A DNA stretch of 40,665 nucleotides from Escherichia phage CharmingMan: sequence record PP925830.1. One strand, given 5' to 3'. The notes beneath the pieces are model-generated. The model had not been told where the DNA came from and made no database searches. It was given only the letters and a program-made list of their open reading frames with translations. The position numbers were made by a program, and so were the translations under genes. Numbering within the stretch: position 1 is the first letter of the stretch; the number at the start of each line of letters is the position of its first letter. Below are positions 13,152 to 17,161 of the stretch, one piece after another.

Positions 13152-13457
13152 ATGAAGAAATCTTCCCATCAAAATACAGGCAGCAAAAAATTTAATATCC
13201 ACGACAAGCTCAGAGGTAGCAATGCTCACTGGTCTCATCGTTTTTCAGCCCAGCCTCATGATGAAGGTTTTAATTACCAGTTCAGAACAACCTGTGTAGA
13301 TGGGGTAGAGTTTGCGGTTTACGAGCGCATTGATAATTGTTTCGTGTTAGTTGATTTCTTCAAGTCCTATGATGAAGCATGTGATGACGCTAAAAATATA
13401 ATCGATGATCATCCGGACATTAAGCGGATGTTTTCCGCCAATCAATTAAGATATTAA
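13152..13457 (+). CDS. Hypothetical protein, first gene of the early-left operon (lambda N position), AT-rich
   Basis: Start at ATG 13152 (GGAG 8 nt upstream); the track start at 13101 lies inside the second operator. Product MKKSSHQNTGSKKFNIHDKLRG... is basic at the N-terminus but has no arginine-rich N-like motif. Confidence 0.5.
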   Translation: MKKSSHQNTGSKKFNIHDKLRGSNAHWSHRFSAQPHDEGFNYQFRTTCVDGVEFAVYERIDNCFVLVDFFKSYDEACDDAKNIIDDHPDIKRMFSANQLRY

Positions 13458-13489
13458 TTAATAAATCTGAATTTAATTAACACCTTTAC

Positions 13490-13509
13490 GGGTGAGGACA
13501 GACTCACCC
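13490..13509 (+). other. Perfect 7-bp stem-loop GGGTGAG-gacaga-CTCACCC just upstream of the next RBS
   Basis: Read directly; no T-run follows, so not an intrinsic terminator. Could be a nut/boxB-like element, an RNase III site or a translational element. Confidence 0.3.
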
Positions 13510-13516
13510 CAAGGAA

Positions 13517-13911
13517 ATGAAAATGCAAAATTTACTTAACTCTATAAATAAGCCAGTCGCTTATCCTCGTGAATTATTTGTTGATGAGAAAGGTGAGTAT
13601 ACGTCTGGGAAAATCATGACTTGCCAGATGGGTGGGGACTCCATGCAGCCAACCATCCAGCCATGCGAACTGATCGCTTTCGCTGACTGTGGCGGAAAGA
13701 TCTCAGAGGCGGGTATTTATGTTTTTACCGTGATGTTTTCGGGCGACCATGCGTATTCGTTAAGCGTGTTGAGCCAATGCCTGACGGCGCTCTGGTGATA
13801 ATTTCTGACAATCATCATTACGAGACTTTTACGCTTGACGCCGACGAGCAGAGCGATATGCAGGTGCATGGCCGGGTTATTGCCTCAATGACAATGAGGC
13901 GCTTCGTATGA
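13517..13911 (+). pseudogene. UmuD-like / cI-C-terminal-domain-like S24 peptidase gene interrupted by a frameshift
   Basis: Frame 1 (13517-13798) encodes ...GGDSMQPTIQPCELIAFADCGGKISEAGIYVFTV then nonsense; a second frame (open 13687-13911) continues VFVKRVEPMPDGALVIISDNHHYETFTLDADEQSDMQVHGRVIASM, the canonical S24 C-terminal half including the catalytic Lys. The junction lies near the T4 run at 13736-13739. Confidence 0.55.
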
Positions 13912-14017
13912 CTTTCATCATTGATAAATCGGCATATAGAACAGCGTGCCTTTATGCGGCCAGCGGTTACGAGGTAATCGCTCGTCTTTATCTTAAAAAA
14001 GCTTACGGGAGATAGTC

Positions 14018-14242
14018 ATGACTATACAGAAGCGCCAAGATATTCAGGGTGTGAATATTAAAGCAGAACAACTCAACTTCCTTATGCAAACAATTCATGC
14101 TCATCACAAGGATTTCGACTGCCATCAACTTGATGGGCTTTTAGGACTTGCTTATGACCTTGCAGGATCGGTTTATTCATGGACGGAAAAAGAGGAAGAA
14201 ATCGTCCTGCAAAATGAAGACCAGCAAAGGATGATTAACTAG
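14018..14242 (+). CDS. Hypothetical protein
   Basis: 74 aa, GGAGA RBS upstream of ATG 14018, tightly followed by the next gene (start 14243). Confidence 0.5.
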   Translation: MTIQKRQDIQGVNIKAEQLNFLMQTIHAHHKDFDCHQLDGLLGLAYDLAGSVYSWTEKEEEIVLQNEDQQRMIN

Positions 14243-14608
14243 ATGAATGATTTTATAAACACCTACCGACGCAGAATATTAAAGGCAGCGTTATTACGCC
14301 ACCAGCGTAAAACAGGAAGTAACTGCCTTGTTATTAAACTCAATAAAGGCGGCATTAACACGGTCGAGTTAACAGAGATTCTTCTCGATGGATTATTACG
14401 AAAATTCGAAAGGCTTGCGATCAGTGAGTACGGGAATGTCGAAGGCGTAAAAGCTATTAAGGGAATTTACAGCAGCGCTGTTGATGTTAATGGCAGCGGT
14501 GAATTCCTCACAGATAGCGGAAAGGAATTAATCGACGAGCTCATTTCTGAGCTGGTTGAGTTCGTCAAAAAGCAGAAACCAGTTAATGCGGAGATCGGCA
14601 ATGGCTAA
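14243..14608 (+). CDS. Hypothetical protein
   Basis: 121 aa, starts directly after the stop of the previous gene, overlaps the next start by 8 nt. Confidence 0.55.
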   Translation: MNDFINTYRRRILKAALLRHQRKTGSNCLVIKLNKGGINTVELTEILLDGLLRKFERLAISEYGNVEGVKAIKGIYSSAVDVNGSGEFLTDSGKELIDELISELVEFVKKQKPVNAEIGNG

Positions 14609-15048: not shown

Positions 15049-15458
15049 ACGATAAACGCACCGTAAGCATGATTGACCTGGCATTACAGAAACACGATAC
15101 GCCAGTTGGCCCACTGTTCGTGGCAGTACGTCACGGTCGTATCAAAAAATGCTTCACGCAAGATACGGCGATCCGCTATCTGGCTTTCTTCATGACCACC
15201 GAGGCTTTTGAGCGTTCAGGTTTTCCACAGCGTCACCCGCGGGTGCGTATTGATCGCGATGACAGGGAGGTATGGCGAGACGGGGAAACAAAGGCTGAGT
15301 ATCTGGCCGCCCACCAGCGTTGTGTTCGCCGTCTGCGTCGCATTCTGGCGCGCAAGCGAGAAATGGAGAAATGGTGTGAGAAATGGGACGCGATGCACGA
15401 CCGCTTCGTTAAAGAGGTGGATGCACTGCAGGCTATCAAGCCGAAAGGAGTTCAGTGA
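15045..15458 (+). CDS. Hypothetical protein, translationally coupled to the preceding small gene
   Basis: 137 aa, Arg-rich C-terminal half; ATGA overlaps at both ends. No HTH or other motif recognised. Confidence 0.5.
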   Translation: MNDKRTVSMIDLALQKHDTPVGPLFVAVRHGRIKKCFTQDTAIRYLAFFMTTEAFERSGFPQRHPRVRIDRDDREVWRDGETKAEYLAAHQRCVRRLRRILARKREMEKWCEKWDAMHDRFVKEVDALQAIKPKGVQ

Positions 15459-16036
15459 TGGTTAATTCAGCCTTTACTCCGGAGCCGACATCAACAGGCA
15501 TCCGTTTTGGTAACCGCGTCATTGGTTATTCCGTCGCGGTTCGCCAGCTCGACAATGGCAACTATGACAAACGAATTCCGGATGGATTAGATCTGCTGGC
15601 TTGCATCATGGAAGCGATTGAAAGCGGCTGGTTTACCCCGGGCATCGAGAGAGAAATCATCATTTGGCGCTGGATGCTTGTTGCCGTCTTCATTACCGAG
15701 GAGCAGGTAAAGAACGGCACAGTTGAGGTTGCCAACGATTCTGGAGGGTTTGACACCGCAGTTATCTACTCCGGACAGCACGGTTCAATCAGTGTTTATC
15801 CTGCGCCAGAGCGGTTCGCACTCGCAAGCCATGTGGAAGGGCTAGCCATTGAAAAATATGGCCAGGAACTCGGACAGCAGATGGCGCTGCTCATGTACCG
15901 GGACATGCTAGATACGGACGCTGAGAACGGGCTTCGACTCTCAAAAATGGGGCGGGAGGGTTTAAATCTCCTTCATGACAGCTTCATTGAACAGATTCAG
16001 AAAGAAGGTATGCCTGACATGCCGGTTATGCACTGA
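15455..16036 (+). CDS. Hypothetical protein
   Basis: 193 aa, ATGA-type overlap with the upstream gene. No motif recognised. Confidence 0.55.
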   Translation: MMVNSAFTPEPTSTGIRFGNRVIGYSVAVRQLDNGNYDKRIPDGLDLLACIMEAIESGWFTPGIEREIIIWRWMLVAVFITEEQVKNGTVEVANDSGGFDTAVIYSGQHGSISVYPAPERFALASHVEGLAIEKYGQELGQQMALLMYRDMLDTDAENGLRLSKMGREGLNLLHDSFIEQIQKEGMPDMPVMH

Positions 16037-16047
16037 GGAGGACGAAA

Positions 16048-16791
16048 ATGAACACTGTAACGATCAATAACAAACATCTGCCGGCAGTCGAATATCGCGG
16101 TCAGCGCGTTGTGACGCTGGCGATGATTGATGAAGTCCACCAGCGACCGGAAGGAACCGCTCGTGCAGCATTCAACCGAAACCGTGAGCATTTCATCAAC
16201 GGTGTAGATTATGCAGAATTAGGTGCGGACGTAATACGTACGGACCTCCCGGAAGGGACATTCTCTAAATTTGCACCGTCAGGGATTGTGCTTTTCGAAT
16301 CAGGCTATCTGATGTTGACGAAGCCATTTAACGATGATCTTGCCTGGCAGGTTCAGCGCGAACTGGTTAACAACTATTTCCGCACTCGCGCGCCGCTGAC
16401 GGAAATCGAGATGATCGCTGCAATGGCCGCCGACGCCGTTCGCCAGCAGAAGCGCCTTAATCATGTTGAAGAGCAGATCGAAACGGTCACAGAAGCTGTG
16501 GAGAACATCAAACGCGGGACCATGCGCGCCGGATATGTCGGTTACCGCCAGGTGGTAGCTAAAAGCGGAATGAGTGACGCTAAGTGCCGAAATCTGGTCA
16601 ATGCCTACCGCATCCCGACAGACACGCACGAATTTATGACTCCAGACGGGTTGTTGTCACGTAGGGCTATCGTCGAACTGGAGCCGTTTATGGCCGCATT
16701 TCGCCAGATGATGTCAGAAGCTGAACCGCGCGGCATCCGCTGGTATCACCCTAAAATGGGCCTTTTCCAGGTGATTGGGTGGGAGGGGTAA
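16048..16791 (+). CDS. ORF6N/Bro-N-type DNA-binding domain protein (antirepressor-like)
   Basis: N-terminal YRGQRVVTLAMIDEVHQRPEGTARAAFNRNREHFINGVDYAEL matches the ORF6N pattern (RGQRV...D.A.L...NRN..RF...DF); C-terminal half unknown. Confidence 0.6.
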   Translation: MNTVTINNKHLPAVEYRGQRVVTLAMIDEVHQRPEGTARAAFNRNREHFINGVDYAELGADVIRTDLPEGTFSKFAPSGIVLFESGYLMLTKPFNDDLAWQVQRELVNNYFRTRAPLTEIEMIAAMAADAVRQQKRLNHVEEQIETVTEAVENIKRGTMRAGYVGYRQVVAKSGMSDAKCRNLVNAYRIPTDTHEFMTPDGLLSRRAIVELEPFMAAFRQMMSEAEPRGIRWYHPKMGLFQVIGWEG

Positions 16792-16793
16792 TC

Positions 16794-17018
16794 ATGAAAA
16801 TTCAATATCAGGACTACGGAGCCGTGGCAAACATTGTGATCTCCAGCACTGTCTTCGAGTTCCGAAAGCATAACCGGGTAGTCGATACCACTCTGTTTCT
16901 GGTGCCAGCCGTAGTGAGTTCACGGCACGGAACCTTCATCCTGAAAACCGTTATTTCAGGTAAAAGCCGCGATGCATTACGCGCTTACAGAACTGCTATC
17001 AGGGAGGCGGCACGATGA
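16794..17018 (+). CDS. Hypothetical protein
   Basis: Start at ATG 16794 (GGAGGGG upstream), 74 aa; stop overlaps the next ATG. Confidence 0.45.
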   Translation: MKIQYQDYGAVANIVISSTVFEFRKHNRVVDTTLFLVPAVVSSRHGTFILKTVISGKSRDALRAYRTAIREAAR

Positions 17019-17161
17019 ATACAGCGTTTGAATTGTGGGTTCGCCAGCGGTACGGAAGCCGCTACGACCTGACGCGGGATATTCAGGGGCTCTACTGCCG
17101 GGAAGTGGTTAAGCGGATGTTTGAGGTCTGGTGCCCCTGCCGTGGTCTGGATGTGGTGTGA
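17015..17161 (+). CDS. Hypothetical 48-aa protein (below ORF-track cutoff)
   Basis: ATG 17015 overlaps the upstream stop (ATGA), GGAGG 7-8 nt upstream; product MNTAFELWVRQRYGSRYDLTRDIQGLYCREVVKRMFEVWCPCRGLDVV; ends 8 nt before the xis start. Confidence 0.35.
   Translation: MNTAFELWVRQRYGSRYDLTRDIQGLYCREVVKRMFEVWCPCRGLDVV

Follow-up and report, generated by a model that had tools for sequence, protein, structure and literature searches.

Escherichia phage CharmingMan (sequence record PP925830.1) carries a block of small genes at positions 13152-17161, on the plus strand between its immunity region and the excisionase gene xis. This block is probably a cI-repressed, mosaic accessory operon that is transcribed from the early-left promoter (pL) of a Hendrixvirinae-type phage and that holds no recombination genes. 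The window, that is, the whole 40,665-nucleotide (nt) stretch of DNA analysed here, represents a temperate, HK97/HK022-type (Hendrixvirinae) siphophage from Enterobacterales. The reading is carried by operators that precede the block, by the packing and conservation of its genes, by comparison with related operons, and by searches for recombination families.

Control region, layout and gene content

The following elements precede the first gene.

12274-12951, plus strand: cI, with a helix-turn-helix (HTH) and an S24 domain and a QAG cleavage site
12973-12993 with a T-run to 13000, plus strand: intrinsic terminator of the cI transcript, with an 8-bp G+C-rich stem
13079-13090: left operator (OL) 1, palindrome TACCTGCAGGTA
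13105-13116: OL operator 2, palindrome TACCTATAGGTA
13091-13120, plus strand: promoter-like site pL, TTGATT-18-TATATT (-35 hexamer at 13091-13096, -10 hexamer at 13115-13120; 9/12 matches)

Both OL palindromes match the three right operators (OR) at 12210-12263, located between cI and a cro-like gene. Because the OL palindromes repeat the OR operators and also flank or overlap the -35 and -10 hexamers of the promoter-like site, we consider OL/pL to be real. The cI terminator is the boundary between the immunity transcript and the early-left operon. A scan from pL to int revealed no convincing terminator, and internal promoter-like sites were not above chance (6 found, 9.9 expected). The xis and int genes are predicted to be the distal end of the pL transcription unit. 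The genes of the operon, together with an RNA hairpin between the first two, are listed below; all are on the plus strand.

13152-13457, plus strand: g1, 101 amino acids (aa), first gene past pL, orphan
13483-13514, plus strand: conserved RNA hairpin, minimum free energy -18.2 kcal/mol, z-score -4.1
13517-13911, plus strand: g2, S24 protease domain (LexA/UmuD/cI C-terminal-domain type), split into open reading frames (ORFs) 13517-13798 and 13777-13911
13908-14015, plus strand: g3, basic micro-protein of 35 aa, coupled to g2 (ATGA), conserved core
14018-14242, plus strand: g4, 74 aa, acidic, phrog_8959 (an annotation without a function)
14243-14608, plus strand: g5, 121 aa, core orphan, phrog_1737
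14601-14855, plus strand: g6, 84 aa, acidic, phrog_340, start corrected to the ATG at 14601
14827-15048, plus strand: g7, 73 aa, isoelectric point (pI) 11.5, ParE_like/HigB-like
15045-15458, plus strand: g8, 137 aa, basic, phrog_1886, abuts g7 (ATGA)
15455-16036, plus strand: g9, 192-193 aa, acidic, phrog_1515, variable cassette
16048-16791, plus strand: g10, 247 aa, ORF6N (KilA-N-like DNA-binding) N-domain and Ant/Rha-family C-terminal region, variable cassette
16794-17018, plus strand: g11, 74 aa, basic, phrog_1001, variable cassette
17015-17161, plus strand: g12, 48 aa, phrog_3871, directly upstream of xis
17169-17405, plus strand: xis, phrog_539, DUF1233-type excisionase in Pfam
17461-18774, plus strand: int, phrog_1, integrase

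The block comprises twelve intact genes and one broken gene (g2), and all of them are preceded by Shine-Dalgarno sequences. Six gene junctions overlap (ATGA/GTGA-type, one by 8 nt and one by 29 nt), and the remaining gaps are at most 11 nt, the sole exception being the 59-nt spacer between g1 and g2. Comparison with homologues gave ratios of nonsynonymous to synonymous change (pN/pS) of 0.10-0.35 for every ORF, the 35-aa g3 and 48-aa g12 among them, and we therefore regard all twelve ORFs as genuine genes under purifying selection. A sequence-only reading of this DNA had described tightly packed, often translationally coupled genes behind OL/pL, and both the junctions and the operators and promoter-like site at 13079-13120 agree with that description. 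Its count of ten genes was too low, given the twelve intact genes and the frameshift-split one. The ORF6N gene, which was the only one it could place, is indeed present as g10, and the S24-domain g2 and ParE_like g7 are recognisable too, so that three genes can be placed.

Recombination genes were sought across the early regions. No operon ORF matched an exonuclease, annealase, Red, Redbeta, Erf, Sak, Rad52, RecT, Gam, Abc, Kil or cIII family in Pfam or PHROGs. The rightward early region, whose products are O/DnaD-like, primase-helicase, Q, HNH endonuclease, TerB-like and lysis proteins, has no match to a Red, Erf, RecT, Gam, Abc, NinB or RusA family, and recombination genes are likewise absent from the fully annotated relative LMessi. 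The earlier observation that the operon lacks a Red-type exonuclease/annealase, Gam and Kil is thus borne out, and CharmingMan appears to have no recognisable recombination genes of its own.

Core genes, exchangeable cassettes and flanking genes

The genes of the window were mapped onto 123 non-redundant related operons, and, to avoid ascertainment bias, presence was scored solely at loci that the other probe had recovered (g7-found loci, n=61; g2-found loci, n=34). The operon is a mosaic: a core of g2-g3-g5, usually joined by g7-g8, is combined with the exchangeable cassettes g1, g4, g6 and g9-g12. The core genes are distributed as follows.

g5: 100% of g7-found loci, 100% of g2-found loci
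g3: 93% of g7-found loci, 97% of g2-found loci
g2: 84% of g7-found loci (probe in g2-found loci)
g7: 65% of g2-found loci (probe in g7-found loci)
g8: 98% of g7-found loci, 59% of g2-found loci

Each cassette gene is present in 12-69% of loci (g1 in 39-62%, g4 in about 68%, g6 in 12-13% and g9 in 18-52%). Over 96 loci, just 28 cassette families fill the slot between g8 and xis; the common alternatives comprise other excisionases, a clamp-like protein, unknowns, and an SPFH/Band-7 protein paired with a small membrane protein. Distant homologues of g5 are not accompanied by g7, and one of them has a g8 homologue directly behind it; at larger distances, the operon genes shuffle independently. The nearest deposited genomes are AsXd-1, LMessi, phi467 and Fraca, which match patchily (at most 63% of a 4.5-kb query, at 84-93% identity), and the top protein matches come from Enterobacter cloacae complex prophages.

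Two observations accompany this comparison. The G+C content of g1-g5 (13152-14608) is 0.39-0.46, as against ~0.50-0.57 in the rest of the operon and window, which is consistent with a separate origin of the proximal part of the operon. Also, AsXd-1 (MH178096, "Aeromonas phage") and EKP1 (OM284015, "Elizabethkingia phage") share 86-88% nucleotide identity with the operon. Their stated hosts look doubtful, with contamination or mislabelling as a possible cause; all protein homologues are from Enterobacterales.

The second gene past pL, g2, matches phrog_6201, and an intact orthologue scores 33.9 bits with Pfam Peptidase_S24 (cut-off 23.3), whereas the two fragments of the window score 12.6 and 13.3 bits, each below the threshold. 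DNA alignment with intact orthologues, which are 129-131 aa long, reveals that one C is missing from an ACCC run at 13727-13729; downstream of the deletion, the gene is otherwise intact in the other frame. The serine of a GDSM motif and the lysine of a KR motif (the Ser-Lys dyad) are invariant across 19 orthologues, and in this genome the deletion leaves these catalytic residues in different reading frames. The broken allele is absent from 169 related loci and from GTDB genomes, and the 1-bp deletion is either a recent lesion or a sequencing error. A programmed frameshift is unlikely: the allele is private to the CharmingMan sequence, and in place of a slippery heptamer there is just a T5 run. 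Orthologues have only ~35 residues ahead of GDSM, no HTH match, and no obvious Ala/Cys-Gly cleavage site. With this short N-terminus and no HTH, g2 is therefore a domain-only protein like UmuD' or HumD, and not a repressor. A duplicate of the cI C-terminal domain that acts dominant-negatively was also considered and is unsupported (hhalign probability 0.8%).

The hairpin at 13483-13514 pairs CCUU with the Shine-Dalgarno sequence of g2 (RNAalifold) and is kept in 24 distinct relatives, with no compensatory changes; an Rfam scan found no RNA family at threshold. Translational control of g2 through sequestration of its Shine-Dalgarno sequence is possible. The loop of the hairpin is purine-rich and boxB-like. 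The idea of g1 as an N-like antiterminator, with the hairpin as its nutL site, was rejected. The arginine-rich motif is absent from g1, which is therefore not N-like, and the window contains just one copy of the hairpin, which therefore does not belong to a nut pair. There are also no strong terminators in the operon that would need antitermination. In the g1 protein (pN/pS 0.19), the C-terminal domain is conserved whereas the N-terminus varies, and the protein has no family in Pfam, PHROGs, NCBIfam or PADLOC.

Among the next genes, g3 (pN/pS 0.12) has no family match, and g5, which is 89-98% identical among close relatives, has no relative in PDB or Pfam and belongs to a small family of 36 representative clusters among 1.84 billion proteins. 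In most relatives, g5 is ~135 aa long and overlaps g7. The acidic C-terminal tail of g6 and its 29-nt overlap with g7 belong to these long forms of g5 in most relatives, and g6 is an inserted cassette that captured the g5 tail and the g7 overlap.

The g7 protein matches Pfam PF24732 (ParE_like) over profile positions 1-67 of 67 (E=4.3e-20; 71.9 bits, cut-off 24.4), and this family is present in all 120 listed homologues (of 381). Homologues are named "ParE family toxin-like" or "plasmid maintenance system killer" in some sources, and "HigB-like" or "mRNA interferase" in phage records. A conserved C-terminal His-Glu-x-Tyr (EVMSHERY) aligns with EVMTHKEY of E. coli HigB. Distant homologues (in Serratia OS31, BZS1, Sortsne and Kc166B) have neighbours that are unrelated to g5, g6 and g8 and to each other. 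As a potential antitoxin, g6 was rejected, since only 12-13% of operons have it and it is an insertion with a captured g5 tail; g5 and g8 likewise fail as conserved partners at larger evolutionary distance. We therefore describe g7 as a putative solitary RelE/ParE-like protein with no conserved partner. Residues 51-58 of g7 (14977-15000) form an Asp-box/BNR-like motif, S-R-D-G-G-K-N-W, which leads to spurious weak matches to beta-propellers (Pfam BNR; Ycf48 and arabinanases in PDB).

The g8 gene lies directly after g7 in 91 of 92 loci. In its confident AlphaFold 2 model (predicted local distance difference test score, pLDDT, 89.4), a 48-residue helix comes after a beta-beta-beta-alpha-beta-beta domain; Foldseek found no significant PDB neighbour for it, and a match to HicB is far below significance. 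The protein shares 42% identity (E=7e-20) with gp23 of Salmonella phage SPN3UB (90 aa; locus L174, 1722-2782), a homologue of the g8 head domain that lacks the long helix. The gp23 gene lies within an Arc/Mnt-Ant anti-repressor region, where it overlaps a g10-related Rha/ORF6N-like gene at that gene's end, which suggests that g8-type and g10-type proteins may work together. The start of g9 is probably the ATG at 15458, because homologues are 192 aa long. Its model is of low confidence (pLDDT 68.7), and a fold search returned generic helical bundles only. Profile searches of PDB with g2, g5, g7, g8 and g9 gave nothing meaningful.

The ORF6N domain of g10 is supported by Pfam (46.8 bits, cut-off 27.8, E=4e-12), and the protein also matches anti-repressor families of PHROGs, namely phrog_1726 (E=1.7e-71) and phrog_63 (Ant; E=2.3e-17, residues 2-238). 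A pRha-type protein in another locus, L173, has a C-terminus in common with it. In an exact-protein look-up, neither g10 nor the g2 fragment was in the collection. A Cys/His pattern is conserved in g12 (YC...WCHC in relatives), and the gene lies just before a DUF1233-type excisionase in two contexts, the window and L173 (5326-5442); g12 may be a small zinc-binding protein that assists excision. The PHROGs families of g4-g9, g11 and g12 are annotated as "unknown function".

Several features of the surrounding DNA are noted in passing. The gene in the cro position (11918-12175, minus strand) has a weak match to Pfam YdaS_toxin, an HTH family, at 20 bits and below the cut-off, and the next gene (11707-11928, minus strand) encodes a DUF4222 protein. 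Just downstream of int is a DinI-like gene (18888-19343, plus strand; Pfam DinI at residues 80-139; phrog_189, "RecA filament binding protein DinI"), whose true start is probably internal because the ORF has an N-terminal extension of ~55 residues; relatives such as Fraca have a DinI-like gene at the same place. Between it and the tail-fibre gene, 19401-19440 (minus strand) weakly matches the 3' end of the Shigella small RNA family CssrB (E=0.0013; 32 bits, where the gathering score is 76). Probable morons on the minus strand, among the rightward and late genes, are a TerB-like "tellurite resistance" gene (5633-6058), an HNH endonuclease (6844-7329), a 175-aa gene annotated as unknown (6239-6769) and a large glycosyltransferase (1054-2526).

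Possible functions of the operon

If the operon is controlled as its operators suggest, cI bound at OL would occlude pL, and the operon genes would be silent in the lysogen. After infection or cI cleavage, they would be made together with Xis and Int, and would provide accessory functions for switch control and host takeover, not for recombination. The placeable genes (the S24 domain, the ORF6N/Ant-like protein, and g8 with its SPN3UB homologue) give hints of a role in regulating the lysis-lysogeny switch and in host takeover. There is close to an even chance that g10, and probably g8, are anti-repressor-type regulators that reinforce or spread induction. In the Shiga toxin (Stx) phage Phi24B, an Ant-type protein has been proposed to promote efficient induction (PMC3064807). 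For the g2 family, the odds are balanced that its Ser-Lys protease domain is active and acts on or with LexA/cI-type proteins or RecA filaments; in CharmingMan, it would be inactivated unless the 1-bp deletion is a sequencing error. More tentatively, g7 could be an antitoxin-less effector of the RelE/HigB/ParE fold that poisons host translation or gyrase once lysis is committed. The other genes, g1, g3, g4, g5, g6, g9, g11 and g12, remain orphans.

Some results weigh against this account. Both cI control and co-transcription of the operon are read from sequence, and "anti-repressor" is for g10 a family label and not a demonstrated activity. Because 8 of 12 genes are without a predicted activity, "switch control and host takeover" covers a minority of the operon. 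The RelE/ParE placing of g7 comes from a single Pfam model: hhalign gave a probability of 4% with E. coli HigB, aligning only an 11-residue C-terminal motif, and 0.1% with RelE, neither of which is significant, and sequence and profile searches of PDB with g7 reached no solved structure. According to hhalign, g2 is not a copy of the phage's own cI C-terminal domain, and the highly divergent g2 profile reached no solved S24 structure in PDB.

The sequence-only reading had instead viewed the region as the likeliest place in the genome for anti-defence functions. In such an anti-defence island, several small orphans, especially the acidic g4, g6 and g9, would inhibit restriction, RecBCD, abortive infection or CBASS (cyclic-oligonucleotide-based antiphage signalling system) early in infection. 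The early-left operons of lambda and P22 hold Gam, Ral and Abc, and the proposal draws on this shared position, from which alone the function is inferred. It accords with the cassette-like turnover of g1, g4, g6 and g9-g12 among relatives, with the small acidic products (pI 4.5-4.9), and with the narrow, quickly shuffling families. However, PADLOC at E<=0.1 gave no match for the ten operon products that it covered (g1, the first g2 fragment and g4-g11), NCBIfam gave nothing for the operon genes, and no PHROGs match in the operon is annotated as anti-defence or host takeover, although no dedicated anti-defence profile library was searched. Moreover, the ten commonest replacement cassettes, in Pfam and PHROGs scans only, match no known anti-defence family; PHROGs does, however, place one of them, the small membrane protein phrog_1130, in its category "moron/host takeover". 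Predicted structures and fold searches of g8 and g9 yielded no function, and neither model resembles a known inhibitor fold. The core is not variable in the manner of an arms race, as the near-identity of g5 among close relatives illustrates, and every placeable gene points elsewhere. We therefore regard an anti-defence island as unlikely. A literature search by family identifier found nothing on the operon families, and a paper on mEpimmI phages concerns a different phage group.

Quite unlikely is a related idea, in which the core genes g2, g3, g5, g7 and g8 would form an undescribed takeover or counter-defence module of the phage. This module would combine an antitoxin-less RelE/ParE-fold effector under repressor control with a free S24 domain whose targets for cleavage or titration would be LexA/cI-type repressors, either the host's own or those of rival prophages, or else host components of toxin-antitoxin and abortive-infection systems.

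A toxin-antitoxin or abortive-infection module is very unlikely. In such a module, the g7 toxin would be neutralised by the upstream, overlapping g5 or by the downstream g8 with its weakly HicB-like head domain, in the service of prophage defence or addiction. The ParE_like match of g7, the translational coupling of g5, g7 and g8, and the near-constant position of g8 after g7 are all as such a module would have them. Yet the genes lie behind OL/pL, with internal promoters not above chance, and should therefore be silent in lysogens. In addition, g7 is missing from 35% of g2-ascertained operons, its distant homologues have unrelated neighbours, and distant g5 homologues do without it. PADLOC gave no match, and neither the HicB match of g8 nor Foldseek offers significant support.

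Finally, orphans such as g8 and g9 could be novel single-strand annealing, exonuclease or anti-RecBCD proteins beyond the reach of profiles, in the position where the lambda early-left operon has exo-bet-gam and in a phage with no other recombinase, but this non-homologous replacement is highly improbable, since the model match is a generic helical segment at low pLDDT, no profile matches Redbeta, Erf, Sak, Rad52, RecT, Gam or Abc, and g9 is a cassette that many relatives dispense with.

If the operon is as it appears, it is another repressor-controlled mosaic accessory region of temperate phages, and its value lies in a short, well-delimited list of candidates. Three points are more than routine: an entire lineage of phages would manage without a recombination system of its own; a protease-domain-only S24 protein is conserved as the second gene past pL and is dispensable or broken here; and a widespread RelE/ParE-like protein is carried by phages without a partner. 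None of these points yet alters the general view of phage biology.

Comparison with known systems

Like the early-left operons of lambda, P22 and HK97/HK022, the CharmingMan operon lies between the immunity region and xis-int, is predicted to be transcribed away from cI from a promoter under OL operators that repeat OR, and consists of small, partly overlapping genes in a cassette-like mosaic. Unlike them, it has no N-like arginine-rich antiterminator or paired nut site, and no homologues of exo/bet, erf, gam, kil, cIII or ral. The place of that gene set is taken by a core of the S24-domain g2, the micro-protein g3, g5, the ParE/HigB-like g7, and g8.

The g2 family resembles the S24 peptidases LexA, lambda cI (C-terminal domain), UmuD' and P1 HumD in its GDSM serine and dyad lysine. 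As with UmuD' and HumD, the protein is the protease/dimerisation domain by itself. It differs from these peptidases in being too divergent to reach solved structures, in having neither a UmuC-like partner nor an obvious cleavage site, and in being frameshifted here. Similarly, g7 is only 73 aa long, has no conserved antitoxin, and lies in a repressor-controlled lytic operon, whereas RelE/HigB/ParE type II toxins belong to autoregulated two-gene cassettes; it shares with them the full-length PF24732 match, small size, very basic character and C-terminal His-Glu-x-Tyr. Although g10 is located inside the pL operon, and not in an immI-type region under Arc/Mnt or LexA, and is a dispensable cassette, it resembles the Ant/Rha/KilA-N/ORF6N proteins, including P22 Ant, Phi24B Ant and the Gifsy anti-repressors, in its ORF6N N-domain and in anti-repressor matches that extend over most of its length.

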